The translations under genes were made by a program, and so were the position numbers. Under the pieces are notes generated by a model. The model saw only the letters and a list, made by a program, of their open reading frames with translations, had not been told where the DNA came from and searched no databases. 64,000 bases of DNA from an uncultured Succinivibrio sp. (GTDB lineage Bacteria; Pseudomonadota; Gammaproteobacteria; Enterobacterales; Succinivibrionaceae), in NCBI GenBank assembly GCA_900754255.1, contig CAAECI010000094.1:365-64364 (forward strand), given 5' to 3'. Position 1 is the first letter of the stretch. Each line of letters begins with the position of its first letter. Positions 38,698 through 46,618 of this stretch are shown piece after piece.

Positions 38698-39903
38698 CTA
38701 TTTAAATCTTATTTGCAAATTCAAATTAAGATAGAATTTGTTGTTTTCGCAGTAGATAGTCATGAACTTATGCCTTTTCGCAGACGGACTTTCAAAACAC
38801 AAGTTTTCGTAAAGGTATTGTTTGAACTCCTCGGTCATACACGAATGTACTGCAACGATTTCGCCGTCATCCTTAACTACCACATATCCGCCGTTTACAG
38901 AAACTTTTCCGTTCCAAGGTTTACTCATACGCATGCCTGTAAACATATCAAACAGCAGATTTGAGATTTTTTTCTCATAAATGTATAAACAGTTGCTAAT
39001 CCCATAATCTGCATTTTCTGCGTCATGCTCAGAAACATATTCACAAGCTTCTTTAACCGAACTGTGTTCTTTCTTTGCCGAAGAATTAAAATAATAATAT
39101 TTAAGCAATGCTGCTGTAATACCTGGCAACTCCTTTCCGCCTGAGGTTATCAAATTTAACGCTGTGAATTCTCCGCAAGTTTTTTCAAAACGCAGATCGC
39201 AATTACTTTCTTTCAATAAATTCATTCGTTTACTGAACGAGGTAGATTTTTTTCCAGAGGAATCTGTATCCCACAAACAATTAAATGCTTCCATGATTTG
39301 TGCGTTACAGCCGATCACTTCGTACTGGAAATTCGTATTGTCGGCACTGGCATTAAAGAGCGTAGCCTTACCGGTTGGAAAGCTGGTTTTTATAGAATAA
39401 GCAAGCAGAGATTCCACACCTGTACGATAATCGGAAGCAAGAAAGTTGATGTCCGGCGTTCCACCGAAAAAACTCTTAGTCCCTTGTTGAGCAGGAGCCT
39501 TCAATTTCGTTACTTTTAGTTTGATTGCCAGAAACTTGCTGACATTACGGTCCTCAATACCCTCTTTGGGTTTTGCATTTTTGATCAAATCCCAGACTTT
39601 TTTTGCACACTTCTGAACGTCTTCAGACGAGACAAAACCGATGTCCAACTTTTCGTTTTCCGTTTTGTCCCAAACCGTATATGTGATATTTCTTGTTTTT
39701 TTATCTTCGTTATTGTGAGACGGTTCGTATTCAATCAGACGATTAGGAATTTCCTCTCGTAGAATTTTAAGAATGTTTAGATAAACTGCTTTATTAAGTT
39801 GCATCCCACTGTCCGCTGCGTACAGTTTTCCTTCATTCAAAATTTTTAAAAATACATATATTTCAGCCCATTCTCCGCGGTTTCCCGTTGTTATTTCCGT
39901 CAT
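38698..39903 (-). CDS. type II restriction endonuclease (HpaII-family-like), partner of the m5C MTase
   Basis: 4-bp overlap (ATGA) with the upstream MTase gene. N-terminal GEWAEIYVFLKIL...GKLYAAD resembles what I recall of the HpaII-type REase family (from memory, unverified). Confidence 0.5.
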   Translation of the reverse strand: MTEITTGNRGEWAEIYVFLKILNEGKLYAADSGMQLNKAVYLNILKILREEIPNRLIEYEPSHNNEDKKTRNITYTVWDKTENEKLDIGFVSSEDVQKCAKKVWDLIKNAKPKEGIEDRNVSKFLAIKLKVTKLKAPAQQGTKSFFGGTPDINFLASDYRTGVESLLAYSIKTSFPTGKATLFNASADNTNFQYEVIGCNAQIMEAFNCLWDTDSSGKKSTSFSKRMNLLKESNCDLRFEKTCGEFTALNLITSGGKELPGITAALLKYYYFNSSAKKEHSSVKEACEYVSEHDAENADYGISNCLYIYEKKISNLLFDMFTGMRMSKPWNGKVSVNGGYVVVKDDGEIVAVHSCMTEEFKQYLYENLCFESPSAKRHKFMTIYCENNKFYLNLNLQIRFK

Positions 39904-41003
39904 TTTAGAATCATCCTTATTTGATTAGCGATCGCCTCAATTACGGGAACCGTAACGCTGTTTCCGAATTGTTTATATAGGTGAGTATCAGCTAACACCA
40001 ATTTAAAATCATCGGGAAAGCCTTGCAGTCTGGCCCATTCTCTTGGAGTCATTTTTCTAATATCTTCCTTATTTATTACACCCTTAATGTGCGTAACCGG
40101 TGTCATGCTGTGCTCACGGTGATCTATAATCAAATTTCGTTCTCTTCCCATTCCGCCGCATACGATGGCTGAAGCTATTCCGTTCATATCTTTGATTTCG
40201 TAGCCGAATCCATGACCAAGAGCCTCGTGTCTGGCTTTATGACGCTTCAATGTCTCAACGTAAACATCTGAGAGGTAGTATTTTGAGGAAACCGGAGCTT
40301 TTTCCAGAATATCACTGATGCATGCTCTAATTCCGGTAGGAGTCGGAAATTTAAAAGAGGACGAATCCAAATCATCTCTGAAGGCGACTATATAAATTCG
40401 CTCCCTATTTTGCGGCACACCAAAGTCTTTACTATTCAGAACCTGAGAATAGACCCTGTACCCGATCTGTTCAAATGCCCCCCTGATAACTTTAAAAGTT
40501 CTGCCGCGGTCGTGTATAACCAGTCCCTTTACGTTTTCGCAAAAAATAACCTTTGGCTTGTGTTTGTCACAAATACGCACCACATCTTGAAACAAAGTAC
40601 CGCGGCACAATCCTTTGTAGTCGTCATTGAACCCCATACGCTTTCCTGCTAAAGAAAACGCCTGACACGGGAAACCAGCCAAACATATATCAAAGTCAGG
40701 AACGTCTTTTTCAGATATTTTTGTTATATCTCCACTGATCTCGAAAGGATCGTGAAAATTTGCGGTATAGGTTTTCTGTGCATATTTGTCCCATTCACTG
40801 ACAAATACAGTCTCTATGCTGTTGTTAAATGCTCTGTCGAAACCTATTCTGATCCCACCAATTCCAGCGAAGAGATCAACTGAACGAAAATTTTTTAATG
40901 AACTCACTGGTTTTAGACTCGTAAATAAAATGTGATATTGTACTTCTCTATATTGCCGTTTTCGGTATTTCAATAAACGATTCGTCCGAACGAAGCCATG
41001 CAT
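39900..41003 (-). CDS. DNA (cytosine-5)-methyltransferase
   Basis: Motifs I (DLFAGIGG), IV (GFPCQAFSLAGKR), VI (ENVKGL), VIII (QNRERIYIV), X (GNSVTVPV). Confidence 0.9.
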   Translation of the reverse strand: MHGFVRTNRLLKYRKRQYREVQYHILFTSLKPVSSLKNFRSVDLFAGIGGIRIGFDRAFNNSIETVFVSEWDKYAQKTYTANFHDPFEISGDITKISEKDVPDFDICLAGFPCQAFSLAGKRMGFNDDYKGLCRGTLFQDVVRICDKHKPKVIFCENVKGLVIHDRGRTFKVIRGAFEQIGYRVYSQVLNSKDFGVPQNRERIYIVAFRDDLDSSSFKFPTPTGIRACISDILEKAPVSSKYYLSDVYVETLKRHKARHEALGHGFGYEIKDMNGIASAIVCGGMGRERNLIIDHREHSMTPVTHIKGVINKEDIRKMTPREWARLQGFPDDFKLVLADTHLYKQFGNSVTVPVIEAIANQIRMILK

Positions 41004-41400
41004 TTAAAATGTCAACTGTCTTCTCTCTTTTAGATTTATTTGTCAACATGCAGGTCCAAACGACGGCAATTCTTAAACCGAGAGATAACAGTTGTCCTAT
41101 GACTTGAGCATCTCTCTTCTTATTTTTTTCTATTTTATCAATCCAAAAACCTCGATTTGTAGAAGGTAGCGAGGATTTTAAGCAATTTGCATGACCGTGC
41201 CAAAAGCATCCGTTTACCATCACGACGGCGTTGTATTTTTTAAAAAATAAATCGGGCGTACCTGGGAGACTTTTTACACAAGTCCGATAGCGATATCCCA
41301 TAGAAAACAACTTTTTTCTTATAAACATTTCAGGACCAGTATTTTTGGATCGAATGAGAGACATGTTCCTGCTTCTTTCTTTCTGATTTTTTGTATCCAT
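40948..41400 (-). CDS. vsr: very-short-patch repair endonuclease Vsr
   Basis: Vsr motifs (SLIRSKNTGPE, PGTPDL, NGCFWHGH, FW..K...N..RD). Overlaps the 5' end of the MTase gene. Confidence 0.85.
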   Translation of the reverse strand: MDTKNQKERSRNMSLIRSKNTGPEMFIRKKLFSMGYRYRTCVKSLPGTPDLFFKKYNAVVMVNGCFWHGHANCLKSSLPSTNRGFWIDKIEKNKKRDAQVIGQLLSLGLRIAVVWTCMLTNKSKREKTVDILNAWLRSDESFIEIPKTAI

Positions 41401-41698
41401 CTTTTCAATCCTCGATAAGTATAAGGTATGGATTTCCCTTCCCAAACCGAACCATGCGATTATACGTTTTGTATAACGCCTTTCTTAATTATTTCAAGAC
41501 AATCACATCAAGTACCGCAGACTGAACTTACGATTTATTAAAGACTTAATTCTTTACCTATATTTTCAAAATATCGCAAGCTTACTAAAAGTAAGTATAG
41601 TCAATATTTTAGCTATACTCAAAATATTGATAATATTTTTAAAATATTTATAATATATAAAGAATATTAATTTACACTTCTTTACAACACAAGGAATA

Positions 41699-41935
41699 GT
41701 GCAGATGAACGATACAGAATCCAAAAGAGAAAAATTTGTGAGGTTGGCTGAAGCAAGAACCAATAAGATTATTGATATGCTCAAGCTTTTAGGCAATTGC
41801 AGTAACTCAAATATATATGAGTACACGAAGGCGGATGTGGATAAAATTTTTTCAGCCATAGAAGCGGCAGTAAAATCTGCCAAACAGGGATATCTGATCA
41901 AAACAAACAATGAAGATGAAAGGTTCAAACTGTAA
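41699..41935 (+). CDS. small helical protein of unknown function (leader of the GHKL operon)
   Basis: 78-aa ORF directly upstream of the GHKL ATPase gene. Confidence 0.4.
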   Translation: MQMNDTESKREKFVRLAEARTNKIIDMLKLLGNCSNSNIYEYTKADVDKIFSAIEAAVKSAKQGYLIKTNNEDERFKL

Positions 41936-41957
41936 ATTAACTACAGGACGGTGCAGT

Positions 41958-43973
41958 ATGTACACAAATGATAATAAACAGCCGCAGTGGGATTTTCCTG
42001 GTTACCCATCAGGAAGCGGTCCTATTACTCAAGGACTTAACACGATAATACAGGATTCATTCAGAGAAAAACCTTTGGATTCATTAATTCGAGAGTGCTG
42101 TCAAAATTCATTGGATGCTTCGGCTAACAACGGAAAGCCCGTCAGAATAGAGTTTCATACTTTTGAAATGTTAACTTCCGATCTGCCGGGAATAGGCGCA
42201 CTGAAAAAGCATATAAAATCATGTCTTAACGGGGTGAATAAATCTAATAATGAGGGAACGAAAAATCCAGAAAAAATACTATACGAAACGGCAAATAGGA
42301 TATTAAACGACAGAAAATTGCTTTGTCTCAGGATAAGTGATTTCAACACTACCGGATTACCTGGGTCCAGAAAACCAAAAGATATTTATAAACTAACCCA
42401 ATGGTATAGATGTGTTGAAACAATGGGATGCTCAGGAGATAAAGAAAAATCGTCAGGGGGGTCCAAAGGAGTAGGTAAATCAACTGCATTTTATAATTCA
42501 GGCATCAGGACAGTGTTTTTTAATACCCTTGACCAAAACGGCGATGAAGCTTCAGAAGGAGTATCTTGGCAAACTTCACATTATGACAGCGATAATAATG
42601 AATGTACTCAGGGATTTTATGCTTGTAAAAATCAAGGTAGGAGACAAGCAATATATGCACAAACCATATTGGATAATTCATTTAAACGAAATGAACCTGG
42701 TACTGACCTCTTTATCATAGGTTTTAATCAAAATGAGAATGAATTCGGAGAAGATCATGATCTAGACACCGTCGTAAAGAATGTCGTAGTAGATTCTTTT
42801 TTACCCGCAATAAAAGCAGGTAATATAATTATCAAAACTGAAAGATCTGAAATAAGCCGTAATACATTACCTGATATCATAAAATATCTCTCATCCGAAG
42901 CCGTACCTAAGAAACGCATCAAACAAGCTAAATCCAACACTGAATTCAATTCAGTTATCGATTCTGAAATACCCGTAAATACATTAGAAACTGATAGCTT
43001 AGGTATAAAAGGGAAATTCGAAATCAAATTGCTTGCCAAGGATGATTACTGTAAAAAAATTGCCGTCTACCGAGAAATTGGCATGAAAATAAAAGAGTTT
43101 AAACCCAGAAAACCATTCGGCTTTGCCGGAGTATTAATAATAAAAGGTCCGGATTTAAATGAATTTATGAAAAACATGGAGACTAGCGCACATAATGACT
43201 GGCATCCAGATATCTATAATGCTGATAAAGAGCAGCTAAAAATTGCAAAACAAATAAAGGACAAACTAACTTATTTTGTTAAAGAATGTGTTGAAAATAT
43301 AAAAACCGAAACAAACAGCGATGATAAAATTGATTCAGGACTCGGAGCTTTATTTCCTGATTCCAATGATTCTTTAAAAACAAAAGGTGAATCTGTTTTC
43401 GGATTGGATCAGTTTGAGGATAAAAAGGAGTTTATTTTTAAAAATTCTTTATCAAACAAAGAAAACACTGTCAGTTATAAAAAAAATGATAAAGAACCCA
43501 ACAAAATATCAATAGATAAAAATGGCGATATAAATGATAAAGAATTCAGATCGACGACGAAAAGAAAAAAAAGCTCACATGATAGGACAGAATCCATCAG
43601 TCCCAACAATACTACGAACAAAGATAATCTTAATAAAGAAATCGAATCAAAGTTCGAAACAGTAAAAGTGAATCTGTCAAATATAAAATTCATTCCATTG
43701 GACAATGAAGGATTCAAATTTAGAGTGAGTTTCATTCCTGAAGTAGGCTATAAAACGGCAATGATTCGATTTAATGTGGCTGGTGAAACTACTGATTATT
43801 CATTACCGATCGCTTATGCAGAAAATGACAAAGGTCCTATTACAATTGAAAAAAACAGTATTTTGTTCGGCGTTCGCCTTACTAGGAATAAACCGTACTC
43901 TTTGGTAATAAAGTTGGAAGATAATACATTCAAATCTTTTTCGGTGGTTGTAGATGCTTATAAGAAAAAATAG
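41958..43973 (+). CDS. GHKL-superfamily (HATPase_c; Hsp90/MORC-like) ATPase protein, ~671 aa, with a large uncharacterised C-terminal region
   Basis: Bergerat-fold motifs: N-box LIRECCQNSLDA (ExxxNSxDA); motif II-like LRISDFNTTGLPGS; G2-box GGSKGVGKSTAFYNS (compare Hsp90 GVGFYSAF). Start at the ATG with an AGGA RBS. Confidence 0.65.
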   Translation: MYTNDNKQPQWDFPGYPSGSGPITQGLNTIIQDSFREKPLDSLIRECCQNSLDASANNGKPVRIEFHTFEMLTSDLPGIGALKKHIKSCLNGVNKSNNEGTKNPEKILYETANRILNDRKLLCLRISDFNTTGLPGSRKPKDIYKLTQWYRCVETMGCSGDKEKSSGGSKGVGKSTAFYNSGIRTVFFNTLDQNGDEASEGVSWQTSHYDSDNNECTQGFYACKNQGRRQAIYAQTILDNSFKRNEPGTDLFIIGFNQNENEFGEDHDLDTVVKNVVVDSFLPAIKAGNIIIKTERSEISRNTLPDIIKYLSSEAVPKKRIKQAKSNTEFNSVIDSEIPVNTLETDSLGIKGKFEIKLLAKDDYCKKIAVYREIGMKIKEFKPRKPFGFAGVLIIKGPDLNEFMKNMETSAHNDWHPDIYNADKEQLKIAKQIKDKLTYFVKECVENIKTETNSDDKIDSGLGALFPDSNDSLKTKGESVFGLDQFEDKKEFIFKNSLSNKENTVSYKKNDKEPNKISIDKNGDINDKEFRSTTKRKKSSHDRTESISPNNTTNKDNLNKEIESKFETVKVNLSNIKFIPLDNEGFKFRVSFIPEVGYKTAMIRFNVAGETTDYSLPIAYAENDKGPITIEKNSILFGVRLTRNKPYSLVIKLEDNTFKSFSVVVDAYKKK

Positions 43974-44313
43974 ATTATTTGCTTATCCTGTTTTAAATGA
44001 TCTTAATAAAAATTACAAAAAAGGAAAATTTAGTGCAGAACTTATTGATAAAAGTTTCGGAGATTATTATGTTTTTGATTGTCATTGCGAACTAGAAAAT
44101 AATAAAAGCATAGAAGCACTTATAAACGAAAGCAAGTGCCTTTATACTTGTTTAGTTGAATGTGGAAAAACGAAATACAGATATCTGTACAGCAGTAAGA
44201 CCCCTATTTTTGAAATAAAGATAAAGAAAACGGAATTATGCGGGCATGTTGAATTTTCTATTAATATAGTTGCCACAAAAAAAAAATACAAAATTTTTCG
44301 TCACCTGATTTAG
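43954..44313 (+). CDS. hypothetical Cys-rich protein. Possibly the 5' part of a gene split by a frameshift at an A10 tract.
   Basis: Overlaps the GHKL gene by 20 nt. Contains CHC...C..C..C. Ends 35 nt after an A10 run. Confidence 0.4.
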   Translation: MLIRKNRLFAYPVLNDLNKNYKKGKFSAELIDKSFGDYYVFDCHCELENNKSIEALINESKCLYTCLVECGKTKYRYLYSSKTPIFEIKIKKTELCGHVEFSINIVATKKKYKIFRHLI

Positions 44314-44378
44314 GCGAAGATTACTCCGGAAGATTAATAAACTTTGACGAGGGATCATTTATTGCTATCGGCCCCCAG

Positions 44379-44855
44379 TTGAGTGAAAATTTTCCCATGC
44401 TTAATGACAGCACTTTTGGGAAAAACAACTCTTTTATCAAAATACAACGTTGTATTAATCCAGATCCATCAATGAGTGTTGATTGGGACGATAATAATAT
44501 TACCATCTATTTATTTAACGATATATATCAATCATATTTAAAATACAAAGACCACAAAAATGTATTTAATCTCCTTATCCAGATGATAGTTGTTCCTGCC
44601 CTTATGGATGTTTTTTCAAAAATCGGCAGTGAATTAAATCATGATTTAATTAGTCCCGATTCCACTAAATGGTACCAAACAATAGATCGTCAATATAAAA
44701 AAGAAAGAAGCAATCGATGTCTGAAGGATGATATAGAATCAGATTCATCCTGTTTGACCATTGTACAAGATATTTTGAAACAACCTTTACGATGTGCTGT
44801 AAATTCTTTAGATGATCTCTTAATTTCTTTTGAAGGCGAGGATATGAATGAATAA
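44379..44855 (+). CDS. hypothetical protein. Frame is open upstream back to 44265.
   Basis: TTG/ATG starts. The reading frame overlaps the preceding ORF across the A10 tract. Confidence 0.4.
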   Translation: MSENFPMLNDSTFGKNNSFIKIQRCINPDPSMSVDWDDNNITIYLFNDIYQSYLKYKDHKNVFNLLIQMIVVPALMDVFSKIGSELNHDLISPDSTKWYQTIDRQYKKERSNRCLKDDIESDSSCLTIVQDILKQPLRCAVNSLDDLLISFEGEDMNE

Positions 44856-45633
44856 TCTAATTTATTTTAAAAGAGAAACGGTAGGAATAATTAAACATGA
44901 TTTAAAATTTATTCTTAATATTTTTTTTACAAATAATCCAATAGAAGAATTGGAGAAAAAATACGGGGAAATAATGGCGTATAAAACCTCCTTTTCATGC
45001 TCTGATTTCTCACTCCTTAAAGATAACGGAGAATGTGTTGGAGATCTGGAAGCCGTAAAACTTGTCCAAGATAAAATGGGGAACATGCCTGCCGCTTTGG
45101 CCTCTGAGGAAGGAATGTGGTCGGCATTAAGCCTTTCCGAACAGTTTTGGCCATATGTTAGAAAAAGATGGTTTATTCCTGCTTTGGAGAGACACTGCAA
45201 CACTAAAGAACCACCTATAAATATGGAACAGAAGGATAAAATATCACAATGGTTGCTTGCCAGAATTTTTTTTGAAAACTATCGCATTACTCGCCATGTT
45301 TTAGCCAGACTGTGGTGGATTGGCAAAATGACCTTTGTTGAAGGAGAAGATCCTTATAAACTTACGACCTTTGTCATGCGCAGTGAAGCATTAGTCACTG
45401 CAATATTCGAACGCAGTCAGGGATCGAACAGGACGCTGGTAAGAAATCTATGTTTCGAATTAATGAAAAGAGAAAAAAACGGAGAGTTAACGGTTAATCA
45501 GAATCTGATAAGAGAACTGTTCAAATATGTTAACGCTTGCGGCGGAGGCATATTGATAGACGAGGTGGCAAACAATCCTGATTCATTATCATTTTTAATG
45601 GATGCATTTTTAAAATGGTATAGACGCCGATGA
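44848..45633 (+). CDS. hypothetical protein (261 aa), last gene of the GHKL operon
   Basis: 8-nt overlap with the preceding ORF; no recognisable motif. Confidence 0.5.
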   Translation: MNNLIYFKRETVGIIKHDLKFILNIFFTNNPIEELEKKYGEIMAYKTSFSCSDFSLLKDNGECVGDLEAVKLVQDKMGNMPAALASEEGMWSALSLSEQFWPYVRKRWFIPALERHCNTKEPPINMEQKDKISQWLLARIFFENYRITRHVLARLWWIGKMTFVEGEDPYKLTTFVMRSEALVTAIFERSQGSNRTLVRNLCFELMKREKNGELTVNQNLIRELFKYVNACGGGILIDEVANNPDSLSFLMDAFLKWYRRR

Positions 45634-45881
45634 CTTATCAAAGAAGCGGCAGTTTATCTTCGATGAGGGTTAAATCTCACCAAAAATGACAGCTGGATGC
45701 AAAAAAACATGCCTATGCTGTAAAATTCACTCCAATGCTCAGATTTTTCTTAATTACTTGATTATTTTTTATTAAAGAAAATGAAGTTAAACAAAGTGCC
45801 TAGTTGCGCCTTGGCAAAGCGGAGATCAATTCGTCTGAAGTCTCCGCCCCTTTAGCAACGAAAATAAATCAGGACAATATA

Positions 45882-46352
45882 ATGCTTTACACCTTTAAAA
45901 TTTATCCCTCCGGTTGGGGCCGGATCGCCTACCGGGTGATGGAAGTAGGCGGAGACAAATCCTTCGACAGCTTGGCAATGGATATTCTGGCCGCATTTAA
46001 CTTTGGCTGCAATCATCTGTATGAATTCAGAAACACATTAGGAAGATCCGACCGTAGCATTATATTTAATCCCAACTACGACAATTTTAATCCGCTCTTG
46101 GGGTTTATCGGTGGAAACGACAGCGACACTGCCGACGAATATAACGATCCCTGTCCAGACCGCAGACATTATGACAGCCGCAGACCGATTAAATTCCTAA
46201 ATCCGGAAAAAAGTTCAAAATTTTATTTTCATTATGATTTCTGTGATGATTGGATTTTTGTCATCCATGTCTCCAAAGTAGAGGCCGATAAGCCATCACC
46301 TGATCACTCAAATGTCATTAAAAGCGTCGGGAAAGTAGGAGGCCGATATTAA
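45882..46352 (+). CDS. pRiA4b ORF-3-like (IS1096 TnpR-passenger-like) family protein
   Basis: N-terminal MLYTFKIYPSGWGRIAYRVMEV...HLYEF matches the pRiA4_ORF3 domain pattern (Y.lKV.L.g..PpIWRR..V...HLyeF). Confidence 0.55.
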   Translation: MLYTFKIYPSGWGRIAYRVMEVGGDKSFDSLAMDILAAFNFGCNHLYEFRNTLGRSDRSIIFNPNYDNFNPLLGFIGGNDSDTADEYNDPCPDRRHYDSRRPIKFLNPEKSSKFYFHYDFCDDWIFVIHVSKVEADKPSPDHSNVIKSVGKVGGRY

Positions 46353-46543: not shown

Positions 46544-46618
46544 TGGCGACCCCAGTAGGAATCGAACCTACAACTAGCCCTTAGGAGGGGCTTGTTATAT
46601 CCATTTAACTATGAGGTC
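46544..46618 (-). tRNA. tRNA-Arg (anticodon CCT)
   Basis: Reverse complement GACCTCA-TA-GTTA..TAAC-A-AGCCC-CTCCTAA-GGGCT-AGTT-GTAGG-TTCGATT-CCTAC-TGGGGTC-G-CCA. Confidence 0.85.

Follow-up and report, generated by a model that had tools for sequence, protein, structure and literature searches.

A length-variable poly-A tract in PDC-M33B, a gene of a candidate anti-phage cassette from an uncultured Succinivibrio, is a probable ON/OFF switch

Homopolymer-driven ON/OFF switching of defence genes is textbook knowledge for a few pathogens. To our knowledge, such switching is hardly documented for newly catalogued defence candidates other than restriction-modification (R-M) systems, or for uncultured gut commensals. 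The locus described here lies in a stretch of 64,000 nucleotides from an uncultured Succinivibrio sp. (GenBank assembly GCA_900754255.1, contig CAAECI010000094.1, positions 365 to 64,364 of the forward strand; hereafter the window). It is a copy of PDC-M33, a candidate phage defence cassette, in which the gene PDC-M33B (M33B) is split at a run of ten adenines (A10). M33B probably carries a hypermutable poly-A tract, of which the window holds an out-of-frame A10 allele, and the tract probably serves as an ON/OFF switch of the candidate cassette. The locus is a useful handle, though not a surprising one, because it affects a multi-gene defence candidate of uncharacterised function in a Succinivibrionaceae-like gut bacterium that is uncultured, and because it offers a natural series of four alleles.

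The poly-A tracts of wbeL (A8) and manA (A9) in Vibrio cholerae O1 are contingency loci (Seed et al. 2012, PMC3441752). Like the tract in the window, they are coding poly-A runs of 8 to 9 nucleotides in a gammaproteobacterium, in which single-base changes truncate the product and natural variants occur in a setting of phage-host conflict. They differ in that wbeL and manA are phage receptor (O antigen) genes whose switching, including manA reversion, has been shown experimentally, whereas the present tract belongs to an intracellular candidate defence cassette, occurs in four lengths (A8 to A11) and is documented at the population level. In the phase-variable R-M systems of Neisseria, Haemophilus, Helicobacter and Campylobacter (bioRxiv 10.64898/2026.01.10.698759, PMC5084427), a tract in a defence gene likewise toggles the reading frame, and ON and OFF alleles coexist. 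These pathogens, however, have many such loci, usually with poly-G/C or multinucleotide repeats and measured high rates, whereas here a single poly-A run lies in an uncharacterised non-R-M cassette, and the adjacent HpaII-like R-M genes are unsplit.

The 5' poly-A tract of Listeria monocytogenes inlA has a mutation rate about 1,000 times that of point mutation (Orsi et al. 2010, PMC2831843). Its frameshift alleles have multiple independent origins, as here, and the excess is comparable to the rough figure given below for M33B; on the other hand, inlA is a virulence gene with its tract at the 5' end, and the M33B tract lies mid-domain, at codons 108 to 110 of 299. In Thermus dnaX, Shigella mxiE and insertion sequence (IS) elements (Baranov et al. 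2005, PMC1088944), runs of at least nine A's join overlapping frames and the slipped product is a fusion, as would be the case for A10. The out-of-frame arrangement is conserved and required in those genes, but in M33B it represents one among four DNA alleles, and orthologues lack it. The 145 phage defence candidate (PDC) systems were proposed by guilt-by-embedding and are untested (bioRxiv 10.1101/2024.01.29.577857). The window contains the A, B and C models of PDC-M33 (PADLOC; Payne et al., bioRxiv 10.1101/2024.01.29.577857) in the same order and orientation, and it differs from the model in its split B gene and in a conserved 76-amino-acid (aa) gene before A that lies outside the model. A full-text literature search for "PDC-M33" and "DUF6339" returned no paper.

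The A10 run, in the context GTTGCCAC-A10-TACAAAATT, is the sole homopolymer of 10 or more nucleotides in the window, the next longest being five 9-mers (coordinates of the features are given in Table 1). It is located inside M33B codons 108 to 111, i.e., the repeat lies within the coding region. In frame 3, a TAA at 44262..44264 is followed by an open stretch that begins at 44265 and ends with the stop codon at 44853..44855, and frames 1 and 3 are both open over 44265..44313. An earlier note, made from the letters of this DNA, had placed the A10 run, the two open reading frames (ORFs) and their overlap at coordinates that are all exact in the sequence. In conceptual translation, one additional A, or a -1 slip on the in-frame A_AAA_AAA, gives a 300-aa fusion product, and an identical protein (P0154) occurs naturally. 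Given the local composition, chance alone would produce 0.34 A/T runs of at least 10 nucleotides in the window, 0.16 in the cassette and 0.04 in the M33B gene. The A10 run by itself is only mildly unusual; its position exactly at the break in M33B is not a matter of chance.

The two ORFs are the halves of one gene, M33B, because their profile matches are complementary, their fusion matches in one stretch and the relatives are single proteins. The PDC-M33B profile of PADLOC-DB has 289 positions; the frame-1 ORF covers 4-108 of these (E = 2.1e-24) and the frame-3 part 106-283 (E = 8e-32), and the fused protein gives one continuous match over 4-283 (E = 3.5e-59). A first, word-indexed protein search returned only two relatives of M33B, and the family emerged with an exhaustive HMMER search, which found 1,169 cluster representatives at E <= 0.001. 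Nearly all of the best 150 of these 1,169 are 276-305 aa long and aligned end to end; the single short match (P0003, 152 aa) is a C-terminal fragment called from split alleles. The proposal of the earlier note that a single gene has been divided into two ORFs at the tract is thus borne out by the PADLOC profile halves and by more than 1,100 single-protein relatives, and the comparison with orthologues that it had named as a check came out in its favour, the relatives being single ORFs. For annotation, this means that two "hypothetical" ORFs in many metagenome-assembled genomes (MAGs), of 119 aa and of 127, 152 or 158 aa, are one gene.

The AlphaFold2 (AF2) model of M33B (pLDDT 92) takes the shape of an N-terminal β-sandwich, extending to approximately residue 186, followed by a helical C-terminal domain. 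According to this model, truncation at the tract breaks the β-sandwich mid-domain, which would destroy the fold, and removes the entire helical domain. The Lys-Lys site encoded by the tract forms a turn between the strands of residues 97-107 and 111-114. The family alignment holds two residues at this site, and A8 (ACA-AAA-AAA-ATA, Thr-Lys-Lys) is therefore the family-typical length and the ancestral one. Since the site is a turn with two residues in the family, the extra Lys of the A11 protein is plausibly tolerated in the modelled fold.

Look-ups by exact protein sequence yielded another 22 non-redundant contigs with this locus (L numbers below; P numbers denote proteins) from human-gut metagenomes and MAGs of several projects and assemblers. 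The tract is A8 in L001-4, L017, L018, L028 and L031-36, A9 in L016 and L019, A10 in the window and L005-9, and A11 in L012 (GCA_900526655.1) and L015. The frame state toggles with the tract length. The A8 product is intact at 299 aa (P0001, P0153 and P0157), as is the A11 product at 300 aa (P0154, with Thr-Lys-Lys-Lys), and these alleles are ON; A9 and A10 are OFF, with products truncated to 117 aa and 119 aa, respectively. The repeat number varies on near-identical flanks: compared with the window, carriers of A9, A11 and some A8 alleles show 1-6 mismatches over 2.2-5 kb (at least 99.8% identity), and lineage 2 (L001-4 and L028), which has A8, is approximately 1% divergent. The locus is therefore of the homopolymer contingency type in its structure, an ordinary mechanism of a well-known kind. 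The prediction of the earlier note that one more A restores a protein of about 300 aa is realised in the A11 allele, which is present in at least four contigs and encodes exactly the predicted fusion. Matches were absent from the E. coli genomes and PLSDB plasmids searched with the locus DNA and from a Joint Genome Institute (JGI) metagenome scan with a tract-spanning pattern, and a scan of genome contigs with the fused protein gave 261 pattern matches, none of which was confirmed.

Homopolymers are error-prone in sequencing and assembly, and several of the contigs have low coverage (e.g., cov 2.2-4.8 in SPAdes names), so that the true sequence of the window might simply be in frame. This explanation is extremely improbable: the identical A10 run is found in at least nine contigs from different samples, projects and assemblers, and four 8-mers within 1 kb of the tract are invariant in the same contigs. 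Assembly error is excluded by the recurrence of each tract length in several independent contigs, in agreement with the clades defined by single-nucleotide polymorphisms (SNPs).

The SNPs were polarised with lineage 2 as the outgroup. The clade of the window (42045A and 43013G) has A10, and a sub-clade within it (43255A) contains both A10 (L009) and A11 (L012 and L015). The clade marked by 45288A and 45816G contains A8 (L017) and A9 (L016 and L019), and the outgroup and the L031-36 clade have A8. The most parsimonious history starting from A8 requires at least three independent events (A8 to A9, A8 to A10 and A10 to A11), compared with 16 substitutions over the 5,001 aligned positions of these sequences, which amounts to a rough, approximately thousand-fold excess per site of tract length changes over substitutions, as seen between strains. 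Four control 8-mers, i.e., the A8 runs at 43479 and 43565 in the gene of PDC-M33A (M33A) and the T8 runs at 44921 and 45266 in that of PDC-M33C (M33C), keep a constant length throughout, and neither M33A nor M33C is broken in any of the 22 loci. The slipped-strand ON/OFF switch suggested by the earlier note is thus strongly supported at the population level by the near-isogenic A8-A11 series, at least three length changes and invariant control runs.

The serious rival to a switch is non-adaptive decay at a mutational hotspot, in which M33B is dispensable or costly and is being lost, and A11 is a chance +1 step rather than a selected reversion. We regard decay as unlikely, but several points speak for it or weigh against switching. 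The A8 tract follows trivially from the AT-rich codons ACA-AAA-AAA-ATA, so that its mutability need not have evolved and the run may be an accidental product of AAA Lys codons in an island of 35% GC. The tract lengths largely follow clades instead of being scattered, a pattern as compatible with a moderate rate, or with a small number of fixed mutations, as with rapid switching. For several of the look-ups, the query was the exact M33A or M33C protein, so that loci with intact neighbours are favoured in the sample. M33B has suffered further frameshifts elsewhere, namely the change of an A6 run to A7 in L028 described below and a 104-aa product (P0158), and between lineages 1 and 2 it shows six nonsynonymous and two synonymous changes, both of which fit relaxation or loss; the corresponding differences are mostly synonymous in M33A (18 nucleotide versus 7 amino acid differences) and M33C (6 versus 2). 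Furthermore, because an intergenic A7 run at 45701 varies too, homopolymer indels arise generally and persist only where they are tolerated. Reversibility, finally, rests on one event placed by parsimony, the OFF-to-ON change from A10 to A11 that appears to have occurred within the sub-clade set by the single SNP 43255A. The same event argues against decay, as does the fact that every observed frameshift is in M33B, whereas M33A, which is larger and has two A8 runs, and M33C, which has two T8 runs, are intact even in the OFF lineages. The C-terminal half of M33B has no secondary lesion in any OFF contig, and the majority of the contigs (approximately 20 of approximately 32) are in frame.

The intergenic run just mentioned (45701..45707) is A6 in L017 of lineage 1 and in L001 and L028 of lineage 2, i.e., it is homoplasic and provides a neutral baseline. 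The A6 run in the overlap of the M33A stop and the M33B start has become A7 in L028, a lineage-2 contig (Logan SRR18498598), where M33B is cut to 6 aa and M33A is extended from 671 to 679 aa; judged from its reading frames, this change would be an independent knock-out of M33B at another homopolymer. Five of the six amino acid differences between the M33B lineages cluster in 50 bp (44454..44503, residues 167-183). Relaxed constraint, recombination or diversifying selection at the surface are possible causes of this clustering, the numbers being small.

The A10 run could also be a site of programmed recoding, either by -1 ribosomal frameshifting or by transcriptional slippage, with a fixed ratio of the 119-aa and 300-aa products. 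A slippery heptamer, (AC)A_AAA_AAA, is indeed present in the zero frame, and a -1 slip would give exactly the A11 product, with the trans-frame peptide VATKKKIQNFSSPDLGEDYSGR (…VATKKKIQNF…). Runs of at least nine A or T also cause efficient slippage of RNA polymerase, which is used in Thermus dnaX, Shigella mxiE and IS elements (PMC1088944). The A10 run is long enough for such slippage, but the two-frame layout lacks conservation. In-frame A8 and A11 alleles occur within this one species, the split is found only in its shallow clades, and more distant orthologues have ITSDII (59% identity), ATEDI (45%) and ATEEI (41%) in the corresponding place and lack a slippery run. The predicted fold of 44270..44370 (-11.4 kcal/mol, z = 0.47) is matched or exceeded in stability by 132 of 200 shuffled sequences, and reading of the upstream sequence TTAATATAGTTGCCAC revealed no Shine-Dalgarno-like element. 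Programmed recoding is accordingly very unlikely, and the -1 ribosomal frameshift that the earlier note had offered as an alternative was abandoned; the lack of a stable downstream RNA structure and the orthologues without a slippery run speak against it.

Under the contingency-locus reading, slipped-strand mispairing during replication would add or remove A's and generate heritable alleles, and the tract would most likely set whether the cassette, or the activity of it that depends on M33B, is on or off in a given lineage. A high switching rate, reversibility and defence as the switched function are each inferred. In the A10 state, some full-length M33B may still arise by RNA polymerase slippage or by a -1 slip on A_AAA_AAA. 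Since runs of at least nine A's give RNA polymerase slippage in many bacteria, such a leak is plausible; it would be adventitious and not a programmed signal. A different role for the tract, which we consider doubtful, is that it tunes or re-programmes the cassette, with M33B as a gating or specificity subunit, A10 as a state of low, graded M33B levels produced by RNA polymerase slippage, and at least three expression states. This idea is raised because only M33B is frameshifted and the GHKL ATPase, the DUF6339 protein and the 76-aa protein are intact in the OFF lineages; if it were true, removal of M33B would change what the remaining proteins do. On the switch reading that we favour, the cassette seems sufficiently active, or sufficiently costly, that its state makes a difference, and the natural, near-isogenic A8-A11 series offers a ready-made genetic experiment for the candidate PDC-M33.

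Matches to the M33A, M33B and M33C models are adjacent and co-directional in the window. The M33A stop overlaps the M33B start by 20 nucleotides, and the M33C start overlaps the M33B stop by 8 nucleotides; the A-B-C order with overlapping stops and starts is also found in L022, L037, L038, L039 and L043. From this layout, M33B appears to be the third gene of a translationally coupled operon consisting of the small ORF, M33A, M33B and M33C, and no terminator-like sites were found within 41300..46000. An upstream ATG at 41910 is a possible alternative start of M33A. The AF2 model of M33A (pLDDT 80) has Foldseek matches to GyrB, ParE, topoisomerase VI-B, MORC3/4, MLH1 and SMCHD1 (E values of 1.7e-8 to 8e-4), and the invariant residues of the motifs QN..D (Gln49, Asn50 and Asp53), D..T.G (Asp128, Thr131 and Gly133) and G..G.G (Gly168, Gly171 and Gly173) are present. 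With these N-box, G1 and G2 motifs and the ATPase-plus-transducer fold of the model, M33A is predicted to be a GHKL (Bergerat-fold) ATPase.

The small ORF also precedes M33A at L022:1463-1693, L037:24-254 and L039:7729-7977, and it is the most conserved gene of the cassette, with 70-79% identity compared with 43-55% for M33A and 41-59% for M33B. Its conservation and position suggest that it is probably a fourth component or a regulator. Searches of Pfam with M33A, M33B and the small ORF gave no match even at E values up to 10, NCBIfam gave none for any cassette protein, a PDB sequence search gave none for M33A and M33B, and the small ORF has no match in PADLOC.

Table 1. Features of the PDC-M33 locus and its divergent neighbour module (window coordinates).
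Feature	Coordinates	Strand	Remarks
A10 homopolymer, variable tract	44277..44286	+	out-of-frame (OFF) length in the window
PDC-M33B gene, whole, with frameshift at the tract	43954..44855	+	intact alleles 299 aa (A8) / 300 aa (A11)
Frame-1 ORF, 119 aa	43954..44313	+	M33B residues 1-110 plus an extra Lys and 8 residues read out of frame
Frame-3 continuation	44265..44855	+	M33B from approximately residue 108 to the C-terminus
Second A-run, A6, in the M33A-stop/M33B-start overlap	43959..43964	+	
PDC-M33A, predicted GHKL-type ATPase (GyrB/MORC/MutL-like N-terminal 450 aa) with C-terminal β domain	41958..43973	+	PADLOC E = 1.2e-123
PDC-M33C, DUF6339 protein	44848..45633	+	PADLOC E = 9.1e-38
Small conserved ORF, 76 aa (78 aa from GTG 41699)	41705..41935	+	first cassette gene, outside the PADLOC model
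Putative sigma-70-like promoter, TTGATA-16-TATAAT, before the small ORF	41627..41654	+	11/12 matches; consensus scan only
Divergent neighbour module	38698..41445	-	
HpaII-like restriction enzyme	38698..39903	-	in neighbour module
5-methylcytosine (m5C) DNA methyltransferase	39900..41003	-	in neighbour module
Vsr	40948..41445	-	in neighbour module

The cassette lies between flgM and flgT in a low-GC island of approximately 38-46.4 kb in the window (34-40% GC, compared with approximately 50%), which is flanked on the right by a tRNA-Arg(CCT) gene (46544..46618, minus strand). FlgT of this bacterium shares 54-57% identity with the FlgT proteins of Succinivibrio and Succinatimonas MAGs, and the species was placed as a Succinivibrionaceae-like gammaproteobacterium. 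By its gene content and position, the island looks like a tRNA-associated defence island. PDC-M33 is found beside defence genes both here, with the HpaII-type R-M and Vsr genes, and in L039-42, with an LlaJI-type R-M system; in L043, the neighbours are genes of a ResIII helicase and an Eco57I-like protein. The operon is a candidate anti-phage cassette. The island also carries an AAA_5/CbbQ-like ATPase, an ORF resembling single-stranded DNA-binding proteins (SSB-like) and a PRiA4_ORF3-like gene (45804..46352).

In L039..L042 (Logan SRR2557xxxx/SRR25448453; 1367-11646), an M33 cassette of 43% identity is divergent from a complete LlaJI-type system, made up of RE_LlaJI, two m5C methyltransferases and a McrB-like protein of the AAA_5 type, and a SieB-like gene is found in the vicinity. 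The divergent layout beside an m5C R-M system is common to the window and L039..L042. An obligatory linkage of M33 to an m5C methyltransferase was considered and rejected, as the window and L039 show it and L043 does not. At the border of the island, two ORFs of 144 and 265 aa take the place of a single 390-aa flgT in an A8 contig (L031:10500-11671; ERZ28575245), and the flgT call in L034 has 394 aa and no Pfam match; flgT may carry a frameshift or be a variant in these two contigs.

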